From Acholeplasmataceae bacterium (GTDB lineage: Bacteria; Bacillota_I; Bacilli_A; Acholeplasmatales; Acholeplasmataceae): a stretch of DNA of 64,000 nucleotides. The notes under the pieces were generated by a model. The model saw only the letters and a list, made by a program, of their open reading frames with translations, was not told where the DNA came from and did no database searches. Position 1 is the first letter of the stretch; the number at the start of each line of letters is the position of its first letter. Positions 35,036-52,236 of the stretch are shown here, piece by piece. The stretch covers positions 542,019 to 606,018 of the forward strand of contig OY763415.1 in the NCBI GenBank assembly GCA_963667565.1, written 5' to 3'. The position numbers were made by a program, and so were the translations under genes.

Positions 35036-35926
35036 TTATTTGATATTTAAGAATTCCTTGATATCTTCTGCCAATTGATCTGGTACATCCACTAAAGGAG
35101 AATGCCCACAATTTTCATAGACTATCAGTTTAGATTGTTTTTGTAATGCATTGTAATTTTCTAATACCATATACTCAGGAACAGTGATATCTTGTCTACC
35201 CCATGTGTGGAGAATTTCTGCTTTTACTTTTGAAATTTGATTCGTACCTGCATTGTAGAAGTTGTGTACATTTGACATGTTCTGATTAGCAAGTGCCCAA
35301 TCTGCATCAATTAAATTTCTTTGTTTAAGGGATTCATTGATCCATAACTTGTTTTCTTCTTTTGAAGGATGATTAACTGTATAAATCGTCTTTTCAAATA
35401 TAAAACTAATGAGGTCAAAATTACCGTTTTTTTGAGCTTCTAGTAAAGGTTTGACCTGGACTGCATCTTCTCCCATTTCTTCTGGAGAAAGGTATGCAAA
35501 ACCGACTTGTGGCAATCCCTTTTCATCTTTCTTAAAGATAGGATATCCACGATGTGTAGATGCATTTATTAATACGCATTTTCCAAGTGATTCTGGATGA
35601 CTTGCTGCAAACTCGAGTGCAACACTTCCTCCTAGTGACCAACCGATTAAATCGGCTTTTTCTATCCCTTTAGCTTGCATGAATAAGTAAATGTCTTCAG
35701 CTAAATCTGCAAGACTTTTAATACGTCTATAGTATGTAGAATCTCCATACCCTCTTAAGTCTGGTGCAAGCACTTTAACATCTCTTGGTAATCTTGAAAG
35801 TAATGGTGTATAAAATAAACTTGATGAAAAATTACCATGTATTAAGATAAGTGTTCTTTGACCTTGTCCTTGTTCTAAATAATGATAGACTTCTCCATTT
35901 TTTAAAACTACTTGTCTTTTTTCCAT
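35036..35926 (-). CDS. Alpha/beta hydrolase, Bacillus intracellular PHB depolymerase (PhaZ)-like, paralog B
   Basis: LIHGNFSSS, DLRGYG, GWSLGG, GYPIFKKD, DPVQV-like segment, GHSP; start moved to ATG 35926. Confidence 0.75.
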   Translation of the reverse strand: MEKRQVVLKNGEVYHYLEQGQGQRTLILIHGNFSSSLFYTPLLSRLPRDVKVLAPDLRGYGDSTYYRRIKSLADLAEDIYLFMQAKGIEKADLIGWSLGGSVALEFAASHPESLGKCVLINASTHRGYPIFKKDEKGLPQVGFAYLSPEEMGEDAVQVKPLLEAQKNGNFDLISFIFEKTIYTVNHPSKEENKLWINESLKQRNLIDADWALANQNMSNVHNFYNAGTNQISKVKAEILHTWGRQDITVPEYMVLENYNALQKQSKLIVYENCGHSPLVDVPDQLAEDIKEFLNIK

Positions 35927-35941
35927 GTGATAACCCCTCAA

Positions 35942-36763
35942 TTAAATATTATATTTTGTTTCTAATGCGTTGATGAATCCTAATATCATTGTAACAAATA
36001 ATAATGGTTTTTCATACATTGATGCATGTCCAGCACCAGGGATGATAACCATATTTGAATCTTTAATGTGTTCATGTAAATATTTTTGATTTTGAATTGG
36101 AGTTAAATAATCTTCATCAGCAGCAATAATTAATGTTGGTGCTGTAATCTTATTTAATTCATCTCTTACATCATATCCTTCAGCACTGTTGGTCAAGCGT
36201 TCCATTGCATCCAAAAACTCAGGATTTGAGAATACAGGAATTAAGACTTGTTCTCTTTTCTTCATCCAATCTAATCTTTGTTCATAATAGCTTGGTGAAT
36301 AAATAATTGGAATAGCTGCTTGATAATAGTTTTGACCATTTCTAGTTTTTCCAATTGCATTCCAAGAGTATCCAATTTCTGCAAGCCAAGGAGAGGTGTT
36401 TGGTGTTGTATTAAATAACACTAATCGCTCTACTTTATTTGGATGTTTAATGGCGAATTGTAATGCGACTTCACCACCATATGAAATACCAACCACATTG
36501 ACTTTAGTCAAGCTTAATTCTTTTAACAAATAATCTAAGACATCGACTTGAATCGATTGTGTATAAGCACTGTTTAATAACTTATCACTTTGTCCTTGAT
36601 CAATAAAATCAACTCTAATGAACATATTGTTTTCTGATAGAGTTTTAACAAAAGGTTCCCATGATTTTGTAGACATCATAATGCCGTTTAAAATCAATAT
36701 AGGTTTGCCCTCACCTTTAACGTCGTAATAGATGGAACGTCCTTTAAAATCTAAATATGCCAT
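35942..36763 (-). CDS. Alpha/beta hydrolase (esterase/enol-lactonase-like)
   Basis: LNGIMM oxyanion region, GISYGG, AGHAS. Confidence 0.85.
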   Translation of the reverse strand: MAYLDFKGRSIYYDVKGEGKPILILNGIMMSTKSWEPFVKTLSENNMFIRVDFIDQGQSDKLLNSAYTQSIQVDVLDYLLKELSLTKVNVVGISYGGEVALQFAIKHPNKVERLVLFNTTPNTSPWLAEIGYSWNAIGKTRNGQNYYQAAIPIIYSPSYYEQRLDWMKKREQVLIPVFSNPEFLDAMERLTNSAEGYDVRDELNKITAPTLIIAADEDYLTPIQNQKYLHEHIKDSNMVIIPGAGHASMYEKPLLFVTMILGFINALETKYNI

Positions 36764-36764
36764 G

Positions 36765-38072
36765 TTAGAAAATCAACTCCAATTTCTTTGCTTCTTCCAT
36801 AAGTTCATCTCTAAACTTAGGATGTGCAATACTAATTAATAATTGTACACGTTCACTAATTGATGTACCTCGAAGTGAAACGCACCCATATTCAGTAACA
36901 ACATAATCAACATCATTTCTAGATAATGAGACACCAGCACCTGGTTTTAAGATAGGAACAATTTTAGATATTTCTTCTCGTTCTCCAGTTTCTGGGTTTT
37001 TAACATTTGCAGTTGAATAAAGTGTAATGAAACTCATACCACCTTTAGAATTTTGTGCACCAATTGCTGTATCAGATTGGCCACCAGTTCCTGAGAATTG
37101 TTTATGACCAAGAGACTCAGATGCACATTGTCCTGTTAAATCAATTTCAATGGTTGTATTAATTGATATTTGATTATCATTTAAACCAATCACTGCAGGA
37201 TCATTGACATAGTTTCCATTTAGGATTTGTACACTTGGATTGTTATCAATAAAGTCATATAACTCTTGTGTACCTAATGCAAAGCAGCATACATGTTTTC
37301 CAACATGTGTTTGTTTCTTAAGACCAGTGACTGCACCTGCTTTAATTAAGTGCATGAATCCAGTGGTTAACATTTCAGTGTGAATACCTAAATCTTTTTT
37401 ACCCATAAGTGCATGTGCGACTGCATTTGGAATACCACCTATACCAAGTTGTAGTGTAGCTCCATCTTCAATCTTATCTGCGATAAATCCACCAATCTTT
37501 AAATCTTTTTCATTTGGTTCAGCATCTGGTAATATGGGTGCTTTATAATCTACTTCAATCATATAATCAATATTTGATACATGAAGTTCGACATCTCCAA
37601 ATGTTCTAGGAAAATTAGGATTAATCTCAAGGATGACAATATCAGCTGCTCGACATGCTTCAATTTCATAAACATTAGATAAAGAAAGTGAAACAAATCC
37701 GTGTTGATCAGGAGGTGTTGCAGTACCTACAAACATATTTGGTTTGACATGTTCGAAACGTTTACGACCAGCAAGGTGTAAATGATTAGGAATAAATGTA
37801 ATATTACCGTTTTGATGAGCTTTTCTTAGAGAGCCCGAATAAAACCAGCTGTCAACTGAAAATGATGATTTATAAGCTGGATTAACAAAAAATTCAGCAT
37901 TTTCAAATGGTAAACAATTTGTCACACGTACACCGCTGACTTGACCAGCGACTTCGTGTAATTTTGATAAAAATAATTTTGGTTCTGCGCCAGCCATCCC
38001 AGATACGATGACATCGTTATCTTTAACGAGTTTTAAGGCTTCTTCAACTGAGATAATTTTATGTTCTTTCAT
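36765..38072 (-). CDS. Acetyl-CoA hydrolase/transferase family CoA-transferase (Cat2/AbfT-like)
   Basis: LQLGIGGIPNAV, GIHTEM (catalytic Glu), GTGGQSD, VVTEYG. Confidence 0.92.
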   Translation of the reverse strand: MKEHKIISVEEALKLVKDNDVIVSGMAGAEPKLFLSKLHEVAGQVSGVRVTNCLPFENAEFFVNPAYKSSFSVDSWFYSGSLRKAHQNGNITFIPNHLHLAGRKRFEHVKPNMFVGTATPPDQHGFVSLSLSNVYEIEACRAADIVILEINPNFPRTFGDVELHVSNIDYMIEVDYKAPILPDAEPNEKDLKIGGFIADKIEDGATLQLGIGGIPNAVAHALMGKKDLGIHTEMLTTGFMHLIKAGAVTGLKKQTHVGKHVCCFALGTQELYDFIDNNPSVQILNGNYVNDPAVIGLNDNQISINTTIEIDLTGQCASESLGHKQFSGTGGQSDTAIGAQNSKGGMSFITLYSTANVKNPETGEREEISKIVPILKPGAGVSLSRNDVDYVVTEYGCVSLRGTSISERVQLLISIAHPKFRDELMEEAKKLELIF

Positions 38073-38099
38073 AATACCCTTCCTTTTTAAAGATATTAT

Positions 38100-38138
38100 C
38101 TTGACTGAAGGGGAGCAATCTCTTACTCCCCTTAGTCA
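38100..38138 (-). terminator. Strong intercistronic hairpin after the substrate-binding gene
   Basis: GACTGAAGGGGAG / CTCCCCTTAGTC imperfect inverted repeat, no clear U-tract. Confidence 0.5.
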
Positions 38139-38259
38139 ACAATAATAGTTAAAATTTACTTATATTAATTTTAAAGGTGCTCTAACTATAAGCATACTGC
38201 ATTTAAATCTTGTAGTCAACTTTAGTTAGGCGATCTTTTTTAGTGTTGTAAATAAATGA

Positions 38260-39606
38260 TTATTTAGCAACAACTGTAGAAATTGATTCAAGACCAATAA
38301 TCTTCTTGAAAGATACTGTTGGTGAATATTGTAATTGGTTTAATGCTAATGTAGATAAACCAGTTCTATTACCATTTGCCCAGTCAATTGATCCAGCCAT
38401 TGGAAGATCTACAGGTGCAGACTCTGCAGCAGCAATAAATGATTCCCAAGTTACTGAGTCTAAGTCAACTCTTTCTAATAAAGTAACAAATGTTTGAGCA
38501 GCAATGTAACCAGCGATTGCATAAGCGTTTGCCCATAATGATTTAGCTGTTGTGTCGCCATCAACACGGTCAGATGAATTCATGTCATGAACAAATGTAT
38601 CCCAATATTCAGCTGTAAAACCAGCAAGATATGAGAAGTCTAATGTCCAACCAGAAAGTGTGCCATCACCACCGATTTGTGCAGCAGTTGGAGCAGCACC
38701 GTTAGCATCAGAAATGTCTACCCATGCATTTGCATAAACTTCGAATGGAAGTGGTGTAGTAGCATCAACCATAGCAGGTGTGAATACTGAAGCACCATTT
38801 ACATAACTTGATAATACAGGAACTGTACTTTCAGCAACTCTTAATGCAGTAGTCATTGCAGTTGCAGGAGCTTGGTTAGCTGATAATAAGAATACATCAG
38901 GATTTAAACCTAAAGCAACTGATGCAACAGCACTTGCAGTTGCAGCACTAAATGGTAAATAAGTAACATTGTCACCAACGCCTTCAGTAGCAACTTGATC
39001 AGTGATACCTAATTTAATTGATTGTCCAGCATCATCATCTGAATAAAGAACAACAATTTTAGCACCTTCTGGTAATTTAGCATCTTTGTTAGCGCCAAAG
39101 ATACTTTCATGAAGTGCTCTTGCGACTAACATTTGACCTTCAGTACGATAGATAGGTTGAACTGATAAGATGTTATTACCAGGTTCGTTAGTGTAATATA
39201 ATGAGTTAACACCAGTTACACCATATACCATAGGTACGCCTGATTCTAATAAGTAGTCCATAGTCGCGTTAACTGTATTAGTTCCAAAATGACCAACTAA
39301 AGCAAATACGTTGTCTTCTTCAACTAATTTTTTAGTATAAGCTAAACCTTGAGCTCCATCAAAACCATCATCATAATGTACAAATTTAATATCTCTACCT
39401 TCATGTGTAGCATTGTATTCATCAAATACAACTTGCATTGCTAAGTTAAAAGGTACACCAACACCAGCAAATAAACCTGATGTAGCTGCTGTATTACCAA
39501 TAACGATTTCAGTATCAGTAATACCTGGAGTTCCTGATTCAGTTTGGCAAGCCATTAAACCAAAGCCAGCAACTAATACAAGTAATAATAAATAAAACTT
39601 TTTCAT
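38260..39606 (-). CDS. HAAT/Liv-type ABC transporter substrate-binding lipoprotein
   Basis: Signal with lipobox LMAC; IVIGNTAATSG, YDDGFD, LVEEDNVFALVG of the LivJ/K fold. Confidence 0.9.
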   Translation of the reverse strand: MKKFYLLLLVLVAGFGLMACQTESGTPGITDTEIVIGNTAATSGLFAGVGVPFNLAMQVVFDEYNATHEGRDIKFVHYDDGFDGAQGLAYTKKLVEEDNVFALVGHFGTNTVNATMDYLLESGVPMVYGVTGVNSLYYTNEPGNNILSVQPIYRTEGQMLVARALHESIFGANKDAKLPEGAKIVVLYSDDDAGQSIKLGITDQVATEGVGDNVTYLPFSAATASAVASVALGLNPDVFLLSANQAPATAMTTALRVAESTVPVLSSYVNGASVFTPAMVDATTPLPFEVYANAWVDISDANGAAPTAAQIGGDGTLSGWTLDFSYLAGFTAEYWDTFVHDMNSSDRVDGDTTAKSLWANAYAIAGYIAAQTFVTLLERVDLDSVTWESFIAAAESAPVDLPMAGSIDWANGNRTGLSTLALNQLQYSPTVSFKKIIGLESISTVVAK

Positions 39607-39657: not shown

Positions 39658-40422
39658 TTATTCATCAGTGGATCCTAAATAGGCACTGATTAAATCTTTA
39701 TCATTGAGAAGATCTTTTGCTAGTCCTTCAGCTTTGATTTTCCCAATTTCTAAAACATACCCATAGTCAGCAATCTTTAAGGTTTGTCTTGCATTTTGTT
39801 CAACAATTAAGATTGTTCTACCATCTTCTTTAATTTTTTTAATGATGTTAAAAATATCTTTGATGATGAGTGGTGCAAGTCCTAATGAAGGTTCATCTAG
39901 TAATAATAATTCAGGTGCACCCATTAAAGCACGACCGATCGCTAACATTTGTTGTTCACCACCAGAGAGGGTTGAAGCTTGCTGTTTGCGTCTTTCGGAT
40001 AGAATAGGAAAATAACCGTATACTTCATTCAGCAAAGCTTTAACTCTTTCTTTTCGTGAAACTTTTATACCATCTTCATTAACTTTTGAGTTAATTGAAT
40101 AAGCGCCAACTAATAAATTTTCTTCAACAGTTAAATCATTTAAAATCATACGTCCTTCTGGTGATTGCATAATGCCTTTAGATACAATTTTAAATGAGTG
40201 TTGATTTTGGATTTCTTCACCGTTATAAAGAATTTGGCCTTCTTTGATTTTAGTCAAACCAGAGATAGAACGAATGGTTGAAGTTTTACCAGCACCATTT
40301 GCTCCAAGGATTGCAACAATTGAACCCTTTGGAACATTCATACTTACACCTTTAACGGCTTTAACGATACCATAGTCGATTTCGACATTTTTAAGTTCTA
40401 AAATATTACTCATCATCATCAT
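39658..40422 (-). CDS. Liv-type ABC ATPase (LivF-like)
   Basis: GANGAGKT, LSGGEQQMLAIGRAL, LDEPSLGLAP. Confidence 0.95.
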   Translation of the reverse strand: MMMMSNILELKNVEIDYGIVKAVKGVSMNVPKGSIVAILGANGAGKTSTIRSISGLTKIKEGQILYNGEEIQNQHSFKIVSKGIMQSPEGRMILNDLTVEENLLVGAYSINSKVNEDGIKVSRKERVKALLNEVYGYFPILSERRKQQASTLSGGEQQMLAIGRALMGAPELLLLDEPSLGLAPLIIKDIFNIIKKIKEDGRTILIVEQNARQTLKIADYGYVLEIGKIKAEGLAKDLLNDKDLISAYLGSTDE

Positions 40423-41983
40423 CTCCTAGGTATGCTTTTCTTACATCTGGATTTTGTTGAATTTCTTTAGGTGTTCCTAGTCCAATACGTTTACCAAATG
40501 AAATCGCACAAATTCGATCACAAATTGACATAACAAGTCCCATATCATGTTCTACTAAGAAAATAGTCACGCCATATTCTTTATTGATTTTCTTAATCAC
40601 TTTTGCTAAGTCTTGAGTTTCTGCATCATTAAGTCCTGCTGCTGGTTCATCAAGAATAATTAAGGATGGATCTGTCATTAATGTTCTTGCTAGTTCTACT
40701 TTCTTTAAGACACCATAAGGAAGTCCATAAGGTGATCTAAAAGCATATTCTTCAATACCGAGGTTTTGTAAGATTTGATAACCTTTAGTTCTTATCACTT
40801 TATCTTCTCTTAAAAGTTTTTGTGTATGTGCCATATGATCAAGGAATGAAGTGATTAAGAGTGAGTGTGCAGCAACCATTAAGTTATCTAACACTGTTAA
40901 TTCCCAAATAAGTTCAACATTTTGGAAACTTCTAGCAATCCCTTCTGAAATCATGTCATGTGTTTTATAGTCATATAAATCAACGATATGATTTTCTTTA
41001 TTTCTTAAGATCATATTACCTGAAGTTGCTTTGTAAAATTGAGTGATACAATTAAATACCGTCGTTTTACCAGCACCATTAGGTCCAATAAGTCCAAAGA
41101 CTTCGCCTTTTTTTACATCAAAAGTTAAATCGTTAACTGCTTTTACACCACCAAAATACATTTTTAAATTTTGAATGGAAAGATGAATTTGATCATCTTC
41201 TAACATATTCATGACAGTTTTAATTTTGCCAACTTCTGCTTCTAGTCTATCGATTTGTTTTTCATTAACGATGTTTCCAGAAGCTTGAAGTGACTTTAAA
41301 TTGATGAGCTGTGGCTCATATTGCTTTAATAACTTACCATCTTCTTCATGACGTTTTTCGTTATATTTCATGATTGATGCCATAATTGATTTGTTTTTAC
41401 TTGTTTTGGATTCAATAGATGCTAAATTACGTTTCAAGAATTGTTCAGTTCTTGATTTTAATCTTTGACCTTTGATTTCCATTGCATCAAGTTGTTTTTG
41501 TTTTTTAAGATCTAAAGCTTCGATTTGCTTATTGATCTTTATTAATTGATTAGGATCAATGGATTGATGAGGTAAGCTTTGTTCTAATTGTTTTTCAAAT
41601 TGATCTCTTTTAGCCTTTTCTTTGATATCCCATGATTTTAAAAGTGCATCAATATCATTTTTTTGATCAGATTTCAAAATTGATGTTTTATATTTTCTTC
41701 TTGCCCAATATGCTTTTTCATCAAACTTTTTAAGTTTTAATGCACGCTTTTGGTCATTTTTTGTTAAACCATCTCTTAGTGCAATAAGGGGTGTGATATC
41801 TTCTTGGTAATAGTTTTCAATAAGTGTTGCTTCCTTTTTCATGAAAGCATCATATTTCTTACTAAACTCAATGGATAAGCCTTTTAAATAATTAATCTTA
41901 AGTAATAACTTACGATGTTTTTTAACATTGTTTTGATTTATATATCTTTCCAAGAAAGTTCCTGGTTTATTCTTCAGTGCCAT
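40406..41983 (-). CDS. Liv-type ABC ATPase (LivG-like) with long charged N-terminal extension
   Basis: C-terminal [26 protein letters not shown]; about 265 Lys/Glu/Gln-rich residues before it. Confidence 0.92.
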
Positions 41984-43004
41984 AAACTTTCTCCTTTACG
42001 TTTGCAGAAATTTTCTTAACAAGTTTCTTAATATCTCCAAATAGCTGAATAAGACCACCTGGATAAAACATGACGACAATGATAATGAGTAATCCATTAA
42101 TAATGATAGAGTAACTACCTAAGTTAAGAGGTTGTAAGACTGCAAGATTTAATCCAAAAATAACAAATGTTCCAAGTAAAATACCCCAAATTGATTTTGT
42201 TCCACCTATAACAACGGCAGCTAATATGTTTAATGCAAATGCTAAACCAACGGATGAGACATCACCATTTCTAACAAACATTAAACTTAAAATCCCTGCA
42301 AGTGTTCCAAAAATACCTGATATTGTAAATGCGAACAAGCGATACTTAATTAAACTGATACCCATGGTTTGCGCTGCTGTTTCACTATTTTTCATTGATA
42401 AGAGTGCACGACCTGTAGGTGAATTGATCAAGTTATATGTGACAATCATCCCTAAGACAACAAAGAATGCTATAAAGTATAGTGTTGAATTCGATGCAAA
42501 TTCGATACCCAGGAAAGCAAGTGGTCTTCTTGGACCACCTGATAAGAATCCACCAGTGGTTCCTGATGCATATTCAGGAATATTTTTTATAATTTCAATA
42601 ACGATTTGTGATAAACCCATAGTTACAATCGCTAAATACATACCAGCAATTCTAAGAGATACAAATCCAAATAGCATTGAAACGGCGATAGCAACAATAA
42701 TTGCACCAACTATAGAAACCGTTAAAGGTAGTGTCATATATCTATATAGATAATGCAGTGTAAATGCACCAATACCTACAAATGCGCCAGTACCAAGTGA
42801 TGCAAGTCCACCATAACCAAGTAATAATGCAAAGCCTAAACCTGCTAAATAATAATATGAGGTAGTCACTACAGCACCAAATAAATCTGGAGGAATAACA
42901 CCTGATAAAAATCTTAAAATGACTAATACTAATCCAACAATAACGAAAGCAAATTTTGGATTCTTTAAGAATGGTTTAAATTTTTCTCTGTAAAATCTTC
43001 TCAT
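41967..43004 (-). CDS. Liv-type ABC permease (LivM-like)
   Basis: GLASLGTGAF, LRIAGMYLAIVT, SPTGRAL, VVIGG. Confidence 0.92.
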   Translation of the reverse strand: MRRFYREKFKPFLKNPKFAFVIVGLVLVILRFLSGVIPPDLFGAVVTTSYYYLAGLGFALLLGYGGLASLGTGAFVGIGAFTLHYLYRYMTLPLTVSIVGAIIVAIAVSMLFGFVSLRIAGMYLAIVTMGLSQIVIEIIKNIPEYASGTTGGFLSGGPRRPLAFLGIEFASNSTLYFIAFFVVLGMIVTYNLINSPTGRALLSMKNSETAAQTMGISLIKYRLFAFTISGIFGTLAGILSLMFVRNGDVSSVGLAFALNILAAVVIGGTKSIWGILLGTFVIFGLNLAVLQPLNLGSYSIIINGLLIIIVVMFYPGGLIQLFGDIKKLVKKISANVKEKVYGTEE

Positions 43005-43006
43005 GA

Positions 43007-43948
43007 TTACACCTTCTTAACAACTTTCTTTCCAAATAATCCTACAGGTTTAATCAAAATGGCAATCATAATTGATAAATACAAAATTGTATTACTCCAT
43101 TGTGTTAAATCCCAATTGACTAAGATTTTTGGGAATAATGTTTGACCGGTCGTTAATATGAATGCACCTGCAAGTGGACCATAGAATGTAGAAAAACCAC
43201 CTAGGATTGATGCATAAAATGCATTAACTTGCATGTCAATCATTGAAGATGATCCAAGTGTACCAATAGCTGCAGTATAAGTAATTGCTGATAATGCACC
43301 AAGTGCACCAGCGATTGCCCAGCTTAATGCATTAACAAAATCTGTATTTACACCCATAAGACCAGCAACTTTTTCATTAGATGCAACAGATCTAACACCT
43401 AAACCCCATTTTGTATATTTAAGCAAAATGAAGATAGCTGTAATAATGATTGTTGCAAGTCCTAAAGTCACAAGATTGTGAATGGGAAGGACCATACCTA
43501 AAATACTTACTGTTTCTTTTGAAAATGGGAAACTAACTCTAGTTACAGTAGATCCAAAAACGATTGGAATAATACCAGTAATGATGATAACGAGACCCAT
43601 TGTGATAATTTGTTTTGTTGCAACATTTGTATACTTAGCATTTTTGAAGATAACTGCATGAATTAAATATCCAGCAATAAATGAAATGAGTATACCTGCA
43701 AGCATAGGTAAGATAATTTGAGTGACAGAAGAAATGACAACGCTTGGCATTCCTAATAAGTCATTTACACCTTGCTTGTCAATAAAATAACTCGTTGCGT
43801 AAGCACCAATAATCCCTAGTGATCCTTGAGCAAAGTTTGTTGTCGAGCTTGTTTTAAAGATTAATACAATCCCAAATGTAGCAAGCGACAAGAAACTAAA
43901 AGCGATCAGTGAGTTCATAATGACACTAATAATATCTGAACCTAACAT
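43007..43948 (-). CDS. Liv-type ABC permease (LivH-like)
   Basis: NFAQG, TKWGLGVR, AGLMGVN, ILGGF. Confidence 0.92.
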   Translation of the reverse strand: MLGSDIISVIMNSLIAFSFLSLATFGIVLIFKTSSTTNFAQGSLGIIGAYATSYFIDKQGVNDLLGMPSVVISSVTQIILPMLAGILISFIAGYLIHAVIFKNAKYTNVATKQIITMGLVIIITGIIPIVFGSTVTRVSFPFSKETVSILGMVLPIHNLVTLGLATIIITAIFILLKYTKWGLGVRSVASNEKVAGLMGVNTDFVNALSWAIAGALGALSAITYTAAIGTLGSSSMIDMQVNAFYASILGGFSTFYGPLAGAFILTTGQTLFPKILVNWDLTQWSNTILYLSIMIAILIKPVGLFGKKVVKKV

Positions 43949-43991: not shown

Positions 43992-45017
43992 TTATCCCCA
44001 TTTGATGATGTTTGCTGCCCATACATAACCTATGCCTGCAGCTAACATACATACAACCGTACCATCTTTAACTTGTCCTGATTGTAATGCTAAATGAAGT
44101 GATAATATTTGATCGATTTGACCTATATGGCCATAATTTTCTAGATAAATAGATTGATCTTCAGAAAGTCCAAGTTCTTCTAACATAGATAAATGTCCTG
44201 AACGTTTCATATGAAGAATATCTAAAAATCCAATATCTTTACGTTCTAAATTTGATTTTCTTAAAGATTCATCAATACATTTGTACCAATTAATCATCGA
44301 TACTTCATTGAGTCTATCTTTCATTTTTTGACCATCTAATAGACGTAATGATTTTTTTGATTCTTCTAAATTTTCTAATGTAAGTGGATTGCATTGTCCA
44401 CCAATTTCAACACCTGCAGTTCTTGCAAGTGATCCATCACCAATCATGTGTGAGCCTAAAAGTAAGTTTTTACCATAATTTTTCTTTAAAATGATGGCTC
44501 CACCACCTGCACCTAGGTCATACATCATTGACATACTCTTATCAGCATAATCCACAAAATCGCCATTACGGTAACCACCAACAACCATGACAACATTGAC
44601 TTCATCATCAGCGATGAGCATGTCTTTTGCCATTTTTAAGGCTGAAACAGTTGTACAGCAACGGTTTTGTACATCAATACCCCAAGCATTAATTGCACCA
44701 ATACGATCTTGAATGTATAGTGCTGAAGTCGTTAGTGGATATTCTTTCCACTCTTCAGTGACACTTAAGATCACATCAATTTCTTTTGGATCTATACCTG
44801 TGTTCTTTAGAGCATCTAATGCCGCTAAAGCACCCATTTCTTGTGATCCATCTTCTGGTAATTGCGTTGGAATAACTTTTTGAACAATCCCTAATTTTTC
44901 AATTACTGCTTCTTCAGCCCAAACACCTTTTGTTTGTTCGCTGATTTCTTTTGCAGTCATTCTACCTTTAGGTAAGTAAATACCAGTTCCAACTATACCA
45001 ACATTTGTTTTTTCCAT
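43992..45017 (-). CDS. 3-oxoacyl-ACP synthase III (FabH)-fold enzyme, atypical active site
   Basis: GTGIYLP, NRCC catalytic Cys, LHMK His, NYGHIG (His where FabH has Asn), AAGIGY. Confidence 0.85.
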   Translation of the reverse strand: MEKTNVGIVGTGIYLPKGRMTAKEISEQTKGVWAEEAVIEKLGIVQKVIPTQLPEDGSQEMGALAALDALKNTGIDPKEIDVILSVTEEWKEYPLTTSALYIQDRIGAINAWGIDVQNRCCTTVSALKMAKDMLIADDEVNVVMVVGGYRNGDFVDYADKSMSMMYDLGAGGGAIILKKNYGKNLLLGSHMIGDGSLARTAGVEIGGQCNPLTLENLEESKKSLRLLDGQKMKDRLNEVSMINWYKCIDESLRKSNLERKDIGFLDILHMKRSGHLSMLEELGLSEDQSIYLENYGHIGQIDQILSLHLALQSGQVKDGTVVCMLAAGIGYVWAANIIKWG

Positions 45018-45047: not shown

Positions 45048-45938
45048 TTATAAATATTTTTTAAGTGTTTTAATAAATAAATCTAGATTATCAGTTAAAA
45101 CTGAATGTCCAGCTTCTTCAAATTTCACTAAAATAGCGCGATCTTTAAAGTATGCTTTCATTTCTTCAGCAAAACTCATAGGTACAACTAAATCTCTAAC
45201 ACCATGGAAAATAACAATCGGTGCAGTGATTAAATCCATACGACCAGTTCCTGGTTCAACACCATTAGAATCTTTTGTCATATTAAAATGTACTAAACTA
45301 TAATCAACATCTACTAAATTTCTTTGTTTAAAAATGGCATCTAAATAAAGTTCATAATCCTCAGGTGAAGGTTGTTTTTGATTGTATATAACAGCATTCC
45401 AAATCGCTCTAAGTATATCTCTATTGTTTGTTTGATATGCATATAATATTGGAGCAACTTGAACTTTATCATTTGCGATGTCTTCTCTTGAAGATAATTG
45501 TTCAGTTAGGATAGGTTGACCATTTTCATCTTTTTTAAACATTGGATAACCTTTAATGCCTACTGAATCAAGTAAAATTACTTTTTTAATGCGTTTTTGG
45601 AAGTCTGCTGCGACTTCTAATACAATACCACCACCTGTTGACCAACCAACAAGTGTAAGGTTATCCAAGTTCAAAGCGTTAATGAATAATTCGACATCAA
45701 CTGCAAAATCATGTAGTGAATTAAGTGGTTTAGTATAACTTGAATCTCCAAATCCTCTTAAATCTAAGGCATATACTTGATATTCTTGTTCTAACTCTTC
45801 AATCGCAACTTGCCAATGAACAGATGAACTCATATTTCCATGAACTAATAAGATGATATCTCCTTTAGTCCCTGATTTACGATACGCAATTGTTTCACCA
45901 TTTTCAAGATTAATAAATTGAACTGGATAATGTTTCAT
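45048..45938 (-). CDS. Bacillus intracellular PHB depolymerase (PhaZ)-like alpha/beta hydrolase, paralog A
   Basis: NGETIAY, VHGNMSSS.HW, DLRGFG, GWSTGG, GYPMFKKDENGQP, DKVQVAP, QRNLVDV, closely resembling B. thuringiensis PhaZ as I recall it. Confidence 0.8.
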   Translation of the reverse strand: MKHYPVQFINLENGETIAYRKSGTKGDIILLVHGNMSSSVHWQVAIEELEQEYQVYALDLRGFGDSSYTKPLNSLHDFAVDVELFINALNLDNLTLVGWSTGGGIVLEVAADFQKRIKKVILLDSVGIKGYPMFKKDENGQPILTEQLSSREDIANDKVQVAPILYAYQTNNRDILRAIWNAVIYNQKQPSPEDYELYLDAIFKQRNLVDVDYSLVHFNMTKDSNGVEPGTGRMDLITAPIVIFHGVRDLVVPMSFAEEMKAYFKDRAILVKFEEAGHSVLTDNLDLFIKTLKKYL

Positions 45939-46657
45939 AGTCTCATGCCACCATCAACACTTAGAGTTTGACCTGTAATATATGATGATTCTTCTGATGC
46001 TAAGAATAGGGCAGCATTTGCAATTTCATGTGGTTGACCTAAACGTTTTAACATCGTTAAAGCTGCAAATTGATCAAGTAAATCTTGAGGTACAGTCTTT
46101 AACATATCTGTCATTGTGTAACCTGGAGCAATCGCGTTTACTCTAACATTTGCACCTTTTCTAGCAAATTCTTTAGCCCATGTTTTAGTCAAACCAATCA
46201 CACCAGCTTTAGTTGCTGCATAATTTGCTTGTCCAATATTACCAAAAACTCCAACCACTGAACTGATGTTTATGATTGAACCATAATTGTTAGCTTCCAT
46301 AAGTGGTCCAAATAAACGTGTTAAGTTAAATACGCCTTTTAAATTGACATCTATGACTAAATTCCATTGATCATCAGTCATTTTGCGAGTCATTGAATCT
46401 CTTGTGATCCCTGCGTTGTTTACTAAAATATCAACTTTACCATATTTTTCAACTACGAAGTCAAAGAATTTTTGAACTGCTTCAACATCAGTGATGTTTA
46501 ATTCATAACCTTCGACATTTTCTGCTTCATATGATAATGCCATCATATCAACAGCGATAACCTTCGCACCTTCTTTAGAAAATGTTTCAGCCATTGATTG
46601 TCCTAAACCTCTTGCACCGCCTGTAACGACAGCGACTTTATCTTGTAATCGTTTCAT
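45935..46657 (-). CDS. SDR oxidoreductase, acetoacetyl-CoA reductase (PhaB)/FabG-like
   Basis: TGGARGLG, NNAGITRD, GQANYAATK; Asp at the end of beta-2 (AVDM). Confidence 0.88.
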   Translation of the reverse strand: MKRLQDKVAVVTGGARGLGQSMAETFSKEGAKVIAVDMMALSYEAENVEGYELNITDVEAVQKFFDFVVEKYGKVDILVNNAGITRDSMTRKMTDDQWNLVIDVNLKGVFNLTRLFGPLMEANNYGSIINISSVVGVFGNIGQANYAATKAGVIGLTKTWAKEFARKGANVRVNAIAPGYTMTDMLKTVPQDLLDQFAALTMLKRLGQPHEIANAALFLASEESSYITGQTLSVDGGMRL

Positions 46658-46677: not shown

Positions 46678-47886
46678 TTATTTAACTTTCTTTAAGATGA
46701 CAGCAGTTCCCATACCGCCACCGATACATAAACTTGCTAATCCTAAATTTAGATCACGTTTCATCATTTCATAAATGAGTGTAACAATGATTCTATTTCC
46801 ACTTGCTCCAACTGGATGTCCAAGTGCGATAGCACCGCCATTAACGTTACATTTTTCTAGAATTTCTTCTTTTGTAATATCAAATGCATCAGTTAATTCT
46901 TTAATGACACCTAATGACTGTGCAGCAAATGCTTCATTTAATTCAAAGAGTTCAATATCTTTGATGCTCATGTTCGCATGTGCTAATGCTTGTTTAATTG
47001 CAGGTGTAGGTCCTAAACCCATCACTGATGGATCCACGCCACCTTGACCAATACCAATTAATTCGAATAAAGGGGTTAATTGATACTTCTTAACTGCATC
47101 TTCACTTGCTAAGATGATGAAACTTGCACCATCGTTAATGCCAGATGAGCTACCAGCAGTTACTGAACCATCTTTTTTAAATACTGTTTTAAGCGTAGCT
47201 AATTTTTCTAATGATGTAGAACGATTGATATATTCATCTTTATCAAAAATGAGATCACCTTTTCTAGTTTTAATGGTAATTGGTGCGATTTCAGCATCAA
47301 ATTTACCTTCATCTTGTGCTTTAGCTGCTCTTTGTTGTGATTCAAAAGAAAATGCATCTTGTTCTTCTCTTGTGATTTGATATTTTTCTGCAATGTTTTC
47401 AGCAGTGACACCCATATGATAACCATTGAATGCATCAGTTAATGCATCATAAATCATATGATCTTGAAGTTTTTGTTCACCCATCTTAATACCAGTTCTA
47501 ACATTACCAGTAACTAAGTATGGTGCACCACTCATTGATTCTGCACCACCAGCAACAACAACTTCATGAATACCAAGTGCAATATTTGCATATCCATTCA
47601 TAAGTGTTTTCATACCACTACCACATACCATATTAATACCATATGCAGGTACGCTTGTAGGTATACCTGATTTTATTGAAATTTGTCTTGCTAAACCTTG
47701 ACCAAGTCCTGCTGGTAAAATATTACCAACTAAAACTTCATTAATTGATTGAGGATCAACCTTAGATTCCTCTAGTAATTGTTTTAAGACCTGTGATCCA
47801 AAATCACTTGGATGGACACCACTAAGTGTACCCATGAATGAACCGATTGCACTACGTTTAGCACCGACTACATAAACTTTTTTCAT
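46678..47886 (-). CDS. Acetyl-CoA C-acetyltransferase (thiolase)
   Basis: VCGSG, NEAFA, GAIALGHPVGASG, LCIGGG. Confidence 0.96.
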   Translation of the reverse strand: MKKVYVVGAKRSAIGSFMGTLSGVHPSDFGSQVLKQLLEESKVDPQSINEVLVGNILPAGLGQGLARQISIKSGIPTSVPAYGINMVCGSGMKTLMNGYANIALGIHEVVVAGGAESMSGAPYLVTGNVRTGIKMGEQKLQDHMIYDALTDAFNGYHMGVTAENIAEKYQITREEQDAFSFESQQRAAKAQDEGKFDAEIAPITIKTRKGDLIFDKDEYINRSTSLEKLATLKTVFKKDGSVTAGSSSGINDGASFIILASEDAVKKYQLTPLFELIGIGQGGVDPSVMGLGPTPAIKQALAHANMSIKDIELFELNEAFAAQSLGVIKELTDAFDITKEEILEKCNVNGGAIALGHPVGASGNRIIVTLIYEMMKRDLNLGLASLCIGGGMGTAVILKKVK

Positions 47887-48006: not shown

Positions 48007-48022
48007 GTGAATAACTATTCAT
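48007..48022. promoter_or_regulatory. Candidate TetR operator 1
   Basis: GTGAATAACTATTCAT quasi-palindrome just downstream of the thiolase-operon promoter. Confidence 0.6.
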
Positions 48023-48034
48023 AATTACACTTTT

Positions 48035-48063
48035 ATATTATCATATAGTAAAACGGTTGTCAA
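48035..48063 (-). promoter_or_regulatory. SigA-type promoter of the thiolase-transporter-hydrolase operon
   Basis: TTGACA (48063-48058), 17 bp, extended -10 TGaTAATAT (to 48035). Confidence 0.75.
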
Positions 48064-48103
48064 CAAGTGTATGTGCGATTTTATAAAAATGTAAAGCGGT
48101 TAC

Positions 48104-48130
48104 AAAAAAAGGCATTTGGAATGCCTTTTT
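48104..48130 (-). terminator. Terminator after etfA
   Basis: AAAAGGCATT-tgg-AATGCCTTTT with T-run on the minus strand. Confidence 0.8.
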
Positions 48131-48158
48131 AAGGGAAAAAGAACTGCATGTATTTAAA

Positions 48159-49151
48159 CTATTGATGGAGGGCTCTAATTGCTTCTACTTCTTCTTCAAG
48201 AAGTGGAAGTACTTTGTTTGCATCAGCAATAATGGATACATCTGCGATATTAAAGATGAGTGCATTAGGATCTGTGTTAATTGCAATAATAAGCTCTGAT
48301 TTATCCATACCAGCGATATGTTGAATAGCGCCACTAATTCCAGATGCGACGTAAACAGAAGGTCTAACAGTTGACCCTGTTTGTCCTACAAGTCTGTCTT
48401 TTGGCTGTATTTGTGAATCAACTACTGCTCTTGAAGCAGCAACTTCACCACCTGTTAATTCTGCTATTTTTTTAAGTGTTTTAAACATGGTAGCGACACC
48501 ACGTCCACCTGAAATGATAAGTTTCGCTTTTGTTAAATCTACATGTTTGCTTTCAGCAATTTTAACATCTAAAACTTTAACTTTTGATTTTTTTTCAAAT
48601 TTAACTTCGAAAGGGGATATTTTAGCTACATTTTTGGAATCAATTGCGATACTAAACACTCCAGGACGGACTGTTGCCATTTGAGGTTTTGTGTTTGGAC
48701 AAATGATTGTTGCAAATAAGTTACCACCAAGCGCAGGTCTTGTTGCAAATAAATCTAGGCTTTGTTCATTTTCTTCAAATTCTAGAATTGTTGCGTCAGC
48801 TGTTAATCCTGTATTTAGTCTTGCTGATAATCTTGGACCTAAGTCTCTACCAAGAAGAGTAGATCCAATTAAAAATACATCAAAATCATTTGCTTTAATG
48901 ACTTGTGTAAGTGCATCTGAATAGTAGGTAGTATCATATACTGTTAGTTGTTCATCTTCAATGACAATAATTTCATGAGCACCACAACTAGAGATGGCTT
49001 TCAAGTCTTCTTCTTTTTTATTTCCAGTTGCATAAATTGCAACAATATGAACTCTGTTATCTAATAATCTTTTAGCTTCGCTAAGTAATTCTAAACCGAC
49101 AGAGCAAACTTTTTCATTTCTTTGTTCGATAAATACGGCACAAGTTCTCAT
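48159..49151 (-). CDS. etfA: Electron transfer flavoprotein subunit alpha
   Basis: IISGGRG, VGQTG, GISGAIQH, AINTDP. Confidence 0.95.
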   Translation of the reverse strand: MRTCAVFIEQRNEKVCSVGLELLSEAKRLLDNRVHIVAIYATGNKKEEDLKAISSCGAHEIIVIEDEQLTVYDTTYYSDALTQVIKANDFDVFLIGSTLLGRDLGPRLSARLNTGLTADATILEFEENEQSLDLFATRPALGGNLFATIICPNTKPQMATVRPGVFSIAIDSKNVAKISPFEVKFEKKSKVKVLDVKIAESKHVDLTKAKLIISGGRGVATMFKTLKKIAELTGGEVAASRAVVDSQIQPKDRLVGQTGSTVRPSVYVASGISGAIQHIAGMDKSELIIAINTDPNALIFNIADVSIIADANKVLPLLEEEVEAIRALHQ

Positions 49152-49939
49152 GAATTTGATACCTCCATATAGGGATAGATCAGTTGTGCAATTTTTTTAG
49201 CTGCAGCTTCTGGTTCCATCACTTCTTTAGGTGCTTTTTGTAATACTGGTTTTGTATATGTTTTTTTAACTCTTGTTGGAGATCCGTTAAGACCAATAGT
49301 TTGTTGATCAATACCCAAATCATCAAAAGTTACCATATCAAATGGTTTATCAAAACATGTCCAAATATCAAATGCACTCATGTATCTTGGTTGATTCATA
49401 GTTCTTGTTGTAGTAATGAGCGCAGGAAGTTCAACACTTAAAGTATATATTTCATTTTCAAATGATTTTTCAACAATGAGATCATTTTCTTTTTGTTCAA
49501 TAATTTTAGAGACATGTGTAATTTGTGGTATATCTAAAAATTCAGCAACTTGAGGACCAACTTGAGCAGTATCGCCATCAATAGCCTGATAACCAGCAAT
49601 AATTAAGTCATATTCAAGTGTTTTAATGAATGTTGATAATATTCTTGAAGTTGCCCATGTATCTGAACCTGCAAATTTACGATCTGATAAGAGATAAGCA
49701 TGATCAACACCACGAGCATATAATTCTCTAATCATTTTTTCAGCTTGAAGTGGACCCATCGTTACTGTGCTAACAGTACCACCATAAATTTCTTTTAATT
49801 TTAATGCTTCTTCTACACCTGCTAAATCATCTGGGTTGATAATGGATTTGACACCTGCTCGAATTAAAGTGTTTGTTTCTTTATCAATTTTGATTTCAGT
49901 TGTATCTGGCACTTGTTTGACTAAGACGAGAATTTTCAT
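49148..49939 (-). CDS. etfB: Electron transfer flavoprotein subunit beta
   Basis: KQVPDT, INPDD, FAGSDTWAT, IDGDTAQVGP, GLNGSPT. Confidence 0.95.
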   Translation of the reverse strand: MKILVLVKQVPDTTEIKIDKETNTLIRAGVKSIINPDDLAGVEEALKLKEIYGGTVSTVTMGPLQAEKMIRELYARGVDHAYLLSDRKFAGSDTWATSRILSTFIKTLEYDLIIAGYQAIDGDTAQVGPQVAEFLDIPQITHVSKIIEQKENDLIVEKSFENEIYTLSVELPALITTTRTMNQPRYMSAFDIWTCFDKPFDMVTFDDLGIDQQTIGLNGSPTRVKKTYTKPVLQKAPKEVMEPEAAAKKIAQLIYPYMEVSNS

Positions 49940-51060
49940 TATCTAAGCACCTTCCCTGCAATAACCATACGCTGAACTTCTGATGTACCTTCATAGATTT
50001 CAGTGATTTTAGCATCTCTATAAAATCTTTCCATTTCATAGTCTCTAATAAAACCATATCCACCCATAAGTTGAATTGCATCATCAGTAACTTCAACAGC
50101 AATTCTAGAGCAATATAATTTAGCCATTGCTGCTGATTCACTATAGTTTTTGTTATTATCTTTGTCACTAACTGCTTGATCAAGTAATAACTTAGCAGCT
50201 GTAACCTTTGTTTTCATATCTGCAATTTTAAATTGTGTATTTTGGAAACTTGCAATTGATTTACCAAATTGTTTACGTGTTTTGATATAATCAACGACAC
50301 GTTCAAATGCACCTTCAGCAATCCCTAATGCTTGTGCAGCAATACCAATTCTTCCACCATCAAGTGTCATCATAGCAATTTTAAAACCTTCATTGACTTT
50401 ACCTAAAAGATTTGCTTTAGGTACTTTAATCTTTTGCATGATAAGCTCACATGTTGATGATGCATGAATACCCATTTTCTTTTCTTTAGGCCCAACAGTA
50501 AAACCTTCCATATCTTTTTCTATAATGAAAGCGGAAATACCCTTTAATCCTAATTCGGGATTGGTCATCGCAAAAATCACATAAATATCGGCATAGCCTG
50601 CGTTGGTTATAAATATTTTATTTCCAGTGATTTCATAATAGTCACCAAAATCGATTGCTTTTGTTTGTTGACTAGCGGCATCTGTACCAGCAGATGGTTC
50701 AGTTAGACCAAACGCGCCTAAATACTCACCTTTATTTAACTTAGTTAAGTATTTAGCTTTTTGTTCTTCTGACCCAAATTGGTAAATTGGCCATGCACAT
50801 AAAGATGTATGTGCTGATAAAATAACGCCAGTTGTTGCACAATATTTAGATAATGTTCTTACTGTATCAATGTATGCTTTGTTATCAGCACCAACACCAC
50901 CATATTGTGTAGGAAATGGAATACCAAGTAATCCATACCTTCCCATCTTTTCAACGGTTTCTACTGGAAATCTTTCTTCTTCATCAATTTCTCTTGCGAG
51001 TGGCTTAACAACTTCTAGGCTAAATTGTTCAACCATTTCTTGTAATAATTCGTGTCTCAT
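49939..51060 (-). CDS. bcd: Butyryl-CoA-type acyl-CoA dehydrogenase
   Basis: FGLTEPSAGTD, GNKIFITN, LDGGRIGIA, KITEIYEGTSEVQ; adjacent etfBA. Confidence 0.88.
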   Translation of the reverse strand: MRHELLQEMVEQFSLEVVKPLAREIDEEERFPVETVEKMGRYGLLGIPFPTQYGGVGADNKAYIDTVRTLSKYCATTGVILSAHTSLCAWPIYQFGSEEQKAKYLTKLNKGEYLGAFGLTEPSAGTDAASQQTKAIDFGDYYEITGNKIFITNAGYADIYVIFAMTNPELGLKGISAFIIEKDMEGFTVGPKEKKMGIHASSTCELIMQKIKVPKANLLGKVNEGFKIAMMTLDGGRIGIAAQALGIAEGAFERVVDYIKTRKQFGKSIASFQNTQFKIADMKTKVTAAKLLLDQAVSDKDNNKNYSESAAMAKLYCSRIAVEVTDDAIQLMGGYGFIRDYEMERFYRDAKITEIYEGTSEVQRMVIAGKVLR

Positions 51061-51473
51061 TTTGGGGGCATAACCGTAGCAACACCTGTAATCACAACTT
51101 CATCATGTTGATTGTATGCGATTGTTTCAAGGATCACTCGATTTTTCTCCTCTATAATTTCACTGACTGTACAAACTGCCTTAATGGTATCGCCTATAAA
51201 TACCGGTTTGACAAATTTTGAATCTTGACGCAAGTAAATAGTTCCACATCCTGGTAATTGAGTACCTAAAACTGTAGAAAATAATGCGCTCACGAGTCCG
51301 CCATGTACGATTCTTTTACCAAACATCGTATTACATGCGTAACCATCATTAATGTGCACAGGATTTTGATCACCTGATACACCAGCAAATAAGATCACAT
51401 CAGCATCTGTCATCGTTTTTTGAAAATATGCAGTGTCACCAACATGAAGATCAGTCATCGTTTTGCCTTTCAC
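51057..51473 (-). CDS. MaoC/PhaJ-type (R)-specific enoyl-CoA hydratase
   Basis: SGDQNPVH (D/H dyad), IVHG, PVFIGDT; start moved to GTG 51473 behind GAAGGAAG. Confidence 0.88.
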   Translation of the reverse strand: MKGKTMTDLHVGDTAYFQKTMTDADVILFAGVSGDQNPVHINDGYACNTMFGKRIVHGGLVSALFSTVLGTQLPGCGTIYLRQDSKFVKPVFIGDTIKAVCTVSEIIEEKNRVILETIAYNQHDEVVITGVATVMPPK

Positions 51474-51507
51474 TTTGCTTCCTTCTTTCGTATTAAATTT
51501 TTGTAAC

Positions 51508-51523
51508 ATGAATAAACGTTCAC
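51508..51523. promoter_or_regulatory. Candidate TetR operator 2
   Basis: ATGAATAAACGTTCAC; its reverse complement GTGAACGTTTATTCAT matches operator 1 at 12 of 16 positions. Confidence 0.6.
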
Positions 51524-51532
51524 TTTAACTCA

Positions 51533-51561
51533 ATCTTATGCCTTTTTAATTTGTTTGTCAA
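51533..51561 (-). promoter_or_regulatory. SigA-type promoter of the maoC-bcd-etfBA operon
   Basis: TTGACA (51561-51556), 17 bp, TAAGAT (51538-51533). Confidence 0.7.
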
Positions 51562-51624
51562 TAGCTAAAAATTTTTTTATTGTCTTTTATCATCTTTTAG
51601 GTTACACTTATATTAGGTGATTGT

Positions 51625-52236
51625 ATGAATGAAGTAAATTATCGTTTACCAAAACGAAAAGATGGTCAAAAGACATTTGACCAAATCATTGAAGCAGCTA
51701 AAAAGTTATTTTCTAAAAAAGGATATTTGGCGACTTCAATTAATGAAATTATTGAAAAATCAGGAATAGCTACTGGAACATTTTATTTATATTTTGATGA
51801 TAAATTCGCATTATACTCATACATTTTAGGAAAATATAGAAAAAGTATAAGAAAAAATATCAGTGATGCAATCAAAGATGTACACACAAGATATGAAAAA
51901 GAAAGATTGGGTTTAAAAGCCTTCTTAAAGTTTGCTTGGGATGATCCACTTGCTTATCGTATCATTTGGGAATCTATGTTTGTTGATCATGATTTGTTTA
52001 AAGAGTATTATCAGACATTTAGTGATAACTATATTAGACAACTATCTCACTCTGTCGAAGAAGGTGAAGTTAGAGATGATGTGGATTTAGAAACACTAAG
52101 TTATGTATTGATGGGTATTTCCAACTTTGTTGGTATTCAAGTTATGTTTAGGGATACATTAACAGAACAAAAACTTGATTTTATCGTTGATCAAGTCATG
52201 CTTGTTTTAAAAGATGGTATGTTTGTAACTAAATAA
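51625..52236 (+). CDS. TetR/AcrR family transcriptional regulator
   Basis: N-terminal HTH (ATSINEIIEKSGIATGTFYLYF); divergent from maoC. Confidence 0.93.
   Translation: MNEVNYRLPKRKDGQKTFDQIIEAAKKLFSKKGYLATSINEIIEKSGIATGTFYLYFDDKFALYSYILGKYRKSIRKNISDAIKDVHTRYEKERLGLKAFLKFAWDDPLAYRIIWESMFVDHDLFKEYYQTFSDNYIRQLSHSVEEGEVRDDVDLETLSYVLMGISNFVGIQVMFRDTLTEQKLDFIVDQVMLVLKDGMFVTK

Follow-up and report, generated by a model that had tools for sequence, protein, structure and literature searches.

A candidate two-operon system for catabolism of exogenous (R)-3-hydroxybutyrate units in an Acholeplasmataceae bacterium

To our knowledge, the genes used by anaerobes for the consumption of poly-(R)-3-hydroxybutyrate (PHB) are poorly known. 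Ilyobacter delafieldii uses a secreted depolymerase. Bacillus thuringiensis and B. megaterium have an intracellular depolymerase, PhaZ, that mobilises the cell's own granules, and the clostridial pathway to butyrate (Thl-Hbd-Crt-Bcd/EtfAB) proceeds through the (S)-specific enzymes Hbd and Crt. Fermentation of 3-hydroxybutyrate (3HB) to acetate and butyrate is known in Ilyobacter species, for two of which, I. delafieldii and I. polytropus, PMC10096456 (citing Janssen & Schink 1993) describes activation with CoA, oxidation to acetyl-CoA by way of acetoacetyl-CoA and reduction to butyrate by way of crotonyl-CoA. Here we analyse a stretch of 64,000 nucleotides from an Acholeplasmataceae bacterium (assembly GCA_963667565.1, contig OY763415.1, positions 542,019 to 606,018 of the forward strand), hereafter the window, which sits on one 1.75-Mb contig. 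The 17 genes within window positions 35036-52236 may form a catabolic system of two operons, controlled by a TetR-family regulator, for exogenous (R)-3HB units. We place the probability of this reading at roughly 55%. The substrate would most likely be small soluble 3HB oligomers or esters from the breakdown of PHB by other microbes, and possibly the free acid.

We infer each reaction of the proposed route from family membership. A lipoprotein substrate-binding protein (SBP) and a Liv-type ATP-binding cassette (ABC) importer would take up the substrate, and three cytoplasmic serine esterases, two of the Bacillus PhaZ type and one of the MGS-M2 type, would hydrolyse its ester bonds and so release (R)-3HB. 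A CoA-transferase would then produce (R)-3HB-CoA, spending acetyl-CoA or butyryl-CoA. In an oxidative branch, a short-chain dehydrogenase/reductase (SDR) would give acetoacetyl-CoA and a thiolase two acetyl-CoA, with ATP formed via phosphotransacylase and acetate kinase (AckA). In a reductive branch, a PhaJ-like hydratase would give crotonyl-CoA and Bcd-EtfAB butyryl-CoA; reduced ferredoxin would probably pass to Rnf or to a HydABC-type hydrogenase, and butyrate would leave via the CoA-transferase or Ptb-Buk. The net result would be dismutation of 3HB to acetate and butyrate. The likeness to Ilyobacter is one of overall chemistry. Unlike that system, the genome examined here has no member of the extracellular PHB-depolymerase family PF10503 and couples an ABC importer to cytoplasmic esterases.

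Hydrolases, importer and CoA-linked enzymes

The first PhaZ-type serine esterase (45048..45938, minus strand) falls in the family of Bacillus-type intracellular short-chain-length polyhydroxyalkanoate (scl-PHA) depolymerases. It scores 384.6 bits against NF050089, the NCBI curated equivalog model for intracellular scl-PHA depolymerases (cut-off, 300 bits), and 306 bits against a solved PHB depolymerase (PDB 8YNV), to which it is 47% identical over 290 residues. Its predicted catalytic triad is Ser100 (GWS100TG), D249 and H278; in the alignment, Ser100 falls on the residue mutated in 8YNW, and D249 and H278 have their counterparts too. The second PhaZ-type esterase (35036..35941, minus strand) scores 325 bits against NF050089, has the lipase box GWS102LG and is 35% identical to the first. 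Its start is uncertain, as the listed TTG abuts the preceding stop codon (35926-35941) and Met6 is an alternative. The two proteins, of 296 and 301 amino acids, correspond to the catalytic domain alone and have hydrophilic N termini. In every PhaZ-type copy the x1 position of GxSxG is occupied by Trp, which is the mark of this depolymerase family according to the PHA Depolymerase Engineering Database paper (PMC2666664).

These esterases thus resemble the Bacillus PhaZ enzymes (NF050089; 8YNV) in fold, length, Ser-Asp-His residues and GWSxG motif, and also in having neither a signal peptide nor a separate binding domain. However, the Bacillus enzyme acts in a genome with a class IV PhaC synthase, whereas none was found in 38 genomes that carry the unit described here, and the window genes share an operon with an importer, a CoA-transferase and an enzyme with the fold of 3-oxoacyl-acyl carrier protein (ACP) synthase III (KAS III; FabH). 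The original prediction, which envisaged a complete system for scavenging and fermenting poly- or oligo-(R)-3HB, had noted that PhaC is missing from the window; this absence extends to PhaC of any class in the whole genome and to every carrier searched (0/11 plus 0/26 plus the window's own genome). The same search was positive in the controls, namely a Bacillus with a lone PhaZ, in which class IV PhaC scored 458 bits, and Caulobacter. A third PhaZ paralogue of this genome lies outside the window (C1:1322807-1323667). It has a GWSTG box and scores 244.8 bits, below the cut-off of 300, and it adjoins another alpha/beta hydrolase, an alpha-amylase-family gene and a GH35/42 gene, a context unrelated to that of the cluster.

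The remaining hydrolase (35942..36763, minus strand; 273 amino acids) matches MGS-M2 (PDB 4Q3L) at 294 bits over its full length and shares its GISYG nucleophile motif (GIS94YG). MGS-M2 is an orphan metagenomic carboxylesterase that was obtained by activity screening. As the two are close homologues, MGS-M2 probably originated in a cluster of this type, and its natural substrate may be the same.

The importer has the complete five-component architecture of the HAAT family, with the permeases LivH (43007-43948) and LivM (41967-43004), the ATPases LivG (40406-41983) and LivF (39658-40422) and a lipoprotein SBP (38260..39606), all encoded on the minus strand. The SBP carries the lipobox LMAC20 and a Peripla_BP_6 domain (102 bits), and it matched no NCBIfam family. 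Its AlphaFold2 (AF2) model (pLDDT 90) appears closer to organic-acid binders than to amino-acid binders: 4N03, described as a 'fatty acid ABC transporter SBP', heads the fold matches, binders of aromatic acids and 2-oxo acids come next, and LivJ/K stand lower. LivG, at 525 amino acids, has an N-terminal extension of 260 residues. This N-terminal half (41200-41983) is Lys-rich (17% K), probably helical and without a family match; it is present also in the close relatives of the window, whereas LivG in other versions of the cluster has about 260-285 residues.

Three further enzymes would link 3HB to acetyl-CoA. The CoA-transferase (36765..38072, minus strand; AcetylCoA_hyd_C, 201 bits) is a family-I enzyme of the 4-hydroxybutyrate (4HB) or butyryl-CoA:acetate type; it scores about 300 bits against the 4HB CoA-transferases 3EH7, 3D3U and 3GK7 and stays below the cut-off of the butyryl-CoA:acetate model TIGR03948 (306 versus 674.8 bits). 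The acetyl-CoA acetyltransferase, or thiolase (46678..47886, minus strand), has the Thiolase_N and Thiolase_C domains and scores 465.8 bits against TIGR01930. The FabG/PhaB-like SDR (45935..46657, minus strand) scores 270-283 bits against FabG models and 247 bits against an acetoacetyl-CoA reductase model, from which its role would be that of an (R)-3-hydroxybutyryl-CoA dehydrogenase or acetoacetyl-CoA reductase. The housekeeping FabG is encoded separately, in the fab cluster (C1:325.7-326.5 kb).

Sixteen of the 17 genes lie on the minus strand, and the gene for the TetR-family regulator (51625..52236; TetR_N, 52 bits) alone lies on the plus strand, divergent from MaoC. Operon 1 consists of four genes (MaoC-Bcd-EtfBA) and operon 2 of 12, in the order thiolase, SDR, PhaZ, KAS III-like, LivHMGF, SBP, CoA-transferase, esterase and second PhaZ. 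Neighbouring genes often abut or overlap, by 1-17 nt, and a gap of 272 nt separates EtfA from the thiolase gene. All signals that follow are on the minus strand. Operon 1 is preceded by a promoter-like site (TTGACA-17-TAAGAT; 51533..51561), which is a consensus match only, and EtfA is followed by a terminator-like hairpin with a U-run (48104..48130; -11.3 kcal/mol by RNAfold). Operon 2 has a promoter-like site with an extended TG (TTGACA-17-TAATAT; 48035..48063), and a hairpin with a U-run (34972..35017), obtained with RNAfold on the downstream sequence, closes it. An operator-like motif, TGAAnnnTTATTCA, occurs just downstream of the -10 element at both promoters, as TGAACGTTTATTCA between the -10 element and MaoC (51509..51522) and as TGAATAGTTATTCA at the operon 2 promoter (48008..48021). 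With 2 matches against 1.1 expected, TGAAnnnTTATTCA is not statistically distinctive within the window alone; its support comes instead from positional conservation, since the identical 14-mer stands at the same place before MaoC in 10 related loci and a related motif stands at the same place before the thiolase gene in relatives. The promoter-like sites, hairpins, overlaps and shared motif together indicate that the proposed arrangement of two co-oriented operons with a divergent TetR gene is right.

Distribution of the unit and nature of the substrate

Searches with the PhaZ-type protein recovered all 17 genes in the same arrangement in four close relatives, one of them zrk7, a cultured strain from the deep sea, and the core of the unit in Erysipelotrichaceae, Tissierellia, Oscillospiraceae, Vallitaleaceae, Clostridium amylolyticum and Flexilinea (Chloroflexota). 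Searches with the KAS III-like protein recovered 80 loci, among them those of Acholeplasma laidlawii, A. granularum, Paracholeplasma vituli, Peloplasma aerotolerans, Proteiniclasticum ruminis and Izemoplasmatales. Gene neighbours were counted beside the KAS III-like gene in the 44 related loci that had full flanks of 8 kb. The SDR and the MGS-M2-type esterase are present in all of them (44/44 each), the CoA-transferase in 43/44, the thiolase and the Liv importer in 42/44 each and TetR in 41/44, a grouping far beyond chance. The core, consisting of the thiolase, SDR, KAS III-like enzyme, Liv importer, CoA-transferase, esterase and a regulator, recurs across Mycoplasmatota, several classes of Bacillota and one Chloroflexota genome. 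In at least 20 of 26 further genomes, a PhaZ gene above the cut-off is part of the cluster or its immediate neighbour; often this gene comes last and falls just outside the 8-kb flank.

The versions of the unit differ in detail. The Liv block occupies one of two positions and is of two sequence subtypes, and the binding proteins still share many invariant residues. In two Tissierellia loci (L026 and L029), in C. amylolyticum and in locus L028, a sigma-54-dependent activator with a PAS domain takes the place of TetR, and the two Tissierellia versions also have a short protein of the methyl-accepting chemotaxis protein (MCP) signalling type encoded just before the PhaZ gene. Such an activator and an MCP-signalling gene are typical of the inducible use of an external substrate. 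The KAS III-like protein of the Chloroflexota genome, a Flexilinea sp., is 68% identical to that of the window, which implies that the unit was transferred between phyla. The original prediction knew of no description of such a unit in Acholeplasmatales. The unit is no speciality of that order, however; it is widespread and passes between phyla. Besides uncultured anaerobes, its carriers include the cultured A. laidlawii, Mariniplasma anaerobium, Peloplasma aerotolerans, Proteiniclasticum ruminis, C. amylolyticum and strain zrk7.

Several observations weigh against the use of exogenous 3HB units as proposed here, or limit the form that it can take. Signal peptides are absent from all three cluster hydrolases, and PF10503 has no match in the genome; among 11 other carriers, 10 have no match and one has marginal matches of 22-25 bits only. 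Degradation of polymer by secreted enzymes was rejected on these grounds. The three hydrolases are predicted to be cytoplasmic and the polymer itself would be out of reach, so that the substrate would be imported soluble oligomers or monomer. The 'poly' in the originally predicted substrate thus has to be dropped. For the monomer there is a further difficulty, in that ABC uptake would be costly in comparison with the small ATP yield of 3HB dismutation, and the monomer would therefore be a poor main substrate for a fermenter. The fold matches of the SBP are all at only 12-17% identity, the nearest characterised CoA-transferases use 4HB or butyrate, and the sole PTA_PTB-family member of the genome is a Ptb-like gene adjoined by the gene for butyrate kinase (Buk). 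A PhaZ-type gene is missing from two Christensenellales genomes that retain the core, and the one in Proteiniclasticum is only weak; the core does not, therefore, strictly need PhaZ. The KAS III-like enzyme falls outside the proposed route. The earlier statement that every step is covered does not hold, since it passed over this enzyme, encoded by the most conserved gene of the unit. Lastly, literature searches found no published description of the unit.

Some of these observations would also fit a different small substrate, such as a lactone, a hydroxyacyl conjugate, another short acid with a 3-hydroxy or 3-oxo group, or a fatty acid of short or medium chain length or its ester, with the PhaZ-type enzymes having drifted to that ester. 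We regard this as doubtful. It would accommodate the best fold match of the SBP to a fatty-acid binder, the CoA-transferase with its nearest relatives among 4HB enzymes and the carriers that are missing the PhaZ-type gene. The hydrolase found in every version of the cluster is of the MGS-M2 type rather than PhaZ, and its next-best families, at about 100 bits, are enol-lactonases. Moreover, MaoC, SDR, thiolase and acyl-CoA dehydrogenase together make a complete set for (R)-specific beta-oxidation. However, the PhaZ-type genes score above a curated equivalog cut-off, one of them with close identity to a solved PHB depolymerase, and most genomes have a PhaZ-type gene in linkage with the cluster. 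The presence in most loci of SDR and thiolase without the hydratase fits a ready-made C4 3-hydroxyacyl unit. On established thermodynamic grounds, such organisms cannot feasibly ferment saturated fatty acids by oxidising them, which also argues against that form of the alternative. For a PHB-derived substrate, as originally predicted, the PhaZ families and the lack of PhaC in the 38 carriers speak in favour, while the substrate itself we infer.

The reductive branch and butyrate formation

The enzymes of the reductive branch are encoded by operon 1, on the minus strand. The MaoC-fold hydratase (51057..51509; MaoC_dehydratas, 74.6 bits) has as its best solved relatives the (R)-specific enoyl-CoA hydratases 5CPG (105.7 bits) and 1IQ6 (92.1 bits), and is predicted to be a PhaJ-like, (R)-specific enzyme. 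Its start is uncertain (51458-51509); Met18 may be the true start because family alignments begin at residues 13-20. The butyryl-CoA dehydrogenase Bcd (49939..51060) scores 490.9 bits against chain C of PDB 5OL2, followed by the butyryl-CoA dehydrogenases 9W60, 4L1F and 1BUC. EtfB (49148..49939) scores 246.6 bits against 5OL2_B, with further matches to CarD (6FAH; 220 bits), LctB (7QH2; 182 bits) and 4KPU, versus only about 90 bits against the non-bifurcating human and Paracoccus Etf. EtfA (48159..49151) has the ETF and ETF_alpha domains. The Bcd-EtfAB complex is predicted to be of the bifurcating type, as it is nearest to subunits of known bifurcating complexes. These assignments, like those of the two PhaZ-type hydrolases, the thiolase, SDR, CoA-transferase and Liv importer, agree with the original prediction, and all of the genes that it named are present where it placed them.

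The rest of the genome was searched for phaC, hbd, crt, ackA, rnf and phosphotransacylase genes. No crotonase-family member (Crt) was found genome-wide, and no real 3HCDH/Hbd either, the best matches being at 22 bits or less. AckA, PFOR and RnfC/D are present, as is a group-A6 NADH-dependent FeFe hydrogenase with a NuoF-like partner, which is of the bifurcating type. The organism, a wall-less anaerobe, is predicted from these genes to be a ferredoxin-based, butyrate-forming fermenter. With neither Hbd nor Crt, the (R)-type pair of SDR and PhaJ-like hydratase would be the only link in the genome between acetoacetyl-CoA and crotonyl-CoA, so the proposed replacement of Hbd and Crt by this pair is sustained, and the cluster enzymes would also be the only route from acetyl-CoA to butyrate. 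The clostridial pathway is alike in its thiolase, 5OL2-like Bcd-EtfAB, CoA-transferase and, elsewhere in the genome, Ptb-Buk, and differs in the (S)-specific Hbd and Crt, which are replaced here by the (R)-type SDR and the PhaJ-like hydratase.

It is also conceivable, but unlikely, that the locus is simply an ordinary butyrate branch, in which acetyl-CoA would pass via (R)-3HB-CoA to butyrate and so dispose of electrons from the fermentation of sugar or pyruvate, with the importer and esterases as add-ons. The absence of Hbd and Crt, which makes the cluster the only butyryl-CoA route, is in keeping with this, as is the presence of Ptb-Buk, PFOR, Rnf and the bifurcating-type hydrogenase. In an Erysipelotrichaceae version of the unit, ackA lies between the two operons. 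Furthermore, MaoC and the Ptb-like protein (C1:390720-391616) match the two halves of the fusion family PRK08190, 'bifunctional enoyl-CoA hydratase/phosphate acetyltransferase', at 137 and 271.7 bits, respectively, which hints at a functional link between them. However, only 11/44 loci have MaoC-Bcd-Etf adjacent, against a near-universal presence of the importer, esterase and CoA-transferase. The importer built into the unit, together with a regulator of the repressor or sigma-54/PAS type, speaks for inducible use of a substrate from outside, and a branch of this kind would leave three esterases and the KAS III-like enzyme unexplained.

Across the loci the Bcd-Etf-MaoC branch is an accessory module. 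Since Hbd and Crt are missing, it probably serves general butyrate formation too. Of the reductive branch as originally predicted, the presence of MaoC and Bcd-EtfAB stands, and the same enzymes may equally serve general butyrate fermentation.

The KAS III-like enzyme and the meaning of the unit

The signature gene of the unit (43992..45017, minus strand) encodes an enzyme of the KAS III (FabH) fold that scores 471.6 bits against NF005308/PRK06840 (curated cut-off, 315 bits). It is the most conserved gene of the unit. Read against FabH structures, its catalytic residues are Cys120, His269 and His297, whereas FabH has Cys-His-Asn. These three residues are invariant in 20 orthologues of 55-88% identity from several phyla, in which long motifs such as EEWKEYPLTTS are also invariant and the mean column identity is 75%. 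The AF2 model (pLDDT 84.6) gave only generic FabH fold matches at 21-23% identity, and at E<=1e-20 its family comprises more than 5000 proteins, none of which bears a name other than '3-oxoacyl-ACP synthase'. The enzyme thus shares with FabH the fold, the catalytic Cys and the first His. It differs in that His stands in place of Asn, so that the triad is the Cys-His-His of KAS I/II, and in having its own NCBIfam model and a position outside the fab cluster. A true FabH (398 bits) is encoded with accCDA-fabK-fabD-fabG-fabF-fabZ at C1:320.6-328.2 kb. As this separate cluster for type II fatty-acid synthesis is complete, with its own FabH and FabG, a role in fatty-acid synthesis was rejected for the KAS III-like gene and the SDR, which are not housekeeping genes.

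Two biosynthetic explanations start from this enzyme. One, which we consider very unlikely, is an internal cycle of polyester or oligo-3HB, in which the KAS III-like enzyme, as a synthase of an unconventional kind, would use (R)-3HB-CoA provided by the thiolase and SDR, and PhaZ would mobilise the product. Some enzymes of the KAS III fold, such as CerJ, make esters. CerJ is among the weak matches of the KAS III-like protein, and the locus does place PhaA-, PhaB- and PhaZ-like genes beside a Cys enzyme that forms an acyl-enzyme, in carriers of which 0/38 have PhaC. However, an importer, a CoA-transferase, regulators of a catabolic type and a chemotaxis-type gene are unlike a storage cycle, and the cluster genes include no phasin or PhaR-like gene. 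The conserved His-His pair would suggest carbanion chemistry over simple acyl transfer. The other explanation, which seems to us the least probable of all, is an Ole-like or otherwise biosynthetic module whose product would be a secondary lipid, for instance an olefin or a beta-lactone; OleA, OleB and OleD would correspond to the KAS III-like enzyme, the hydrolase and the SDR, respectively. OleA structures do occur in the fold list of the KAS III-like protein, from rank 26 onward; they are, however, at only 15-16% identity and stand below some 25 FabH entries. OleC is absent, the SDR is FabG-like, the hydrolases score far above dehalogenase-like families to PhaZ and MGS-M2, and the importer and CoA-transferase are always present. 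On the identity to OleA, the missing OleC and the affinities of the hydrolases, the Ole-like module was rejected as weak.

For a catabolic system acting on 3HB units, a tentative and rather improbable role for the KAS III-like enzyme would be CoA-dependent thiolysis of the oxygen-ester bonds in CoA-activated 3HB oligomers, a reaction that would be new for the thiolase superfamily. If so, each ester bond would yield (R)-3HB-CoA directly and not free 3HB, the acetyl-CoA otherwise needed for CoA transfer would be spared, and the yield of ATP would be roughly doubled. This would explain how a fermenter can afford ABC uptake, as well as the strong conservation of the enzyme beside the thiolase, SDR and CoA-transferase.

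The Cys-His-His KAS III-like enzyme is an uncharacterised relative of the condensing enzymes with an unusual active site and, as such, a new enzyme target. If the proposed reading is correct, the unit would supply the genetic basis on which organisms with no PHB synthesis of their own scavenge PHB fragments anaerobically, with carriers in many Mycoplasmatota and Bacillota and in one Chloroflexota genome, some of them culturable, such as A. laidlawii. It would also constitute a natural (R)-specific route to butyrate in place of Hbd and Crt. Thousands of genes now annotated as '3-oxoacyl-ACP synthase' or 'branched-chain amino acid transporter' would have their annotation corrected, and the unit would provide a marker for the scavenging of PHB fragments in sediments, digesters and guts.

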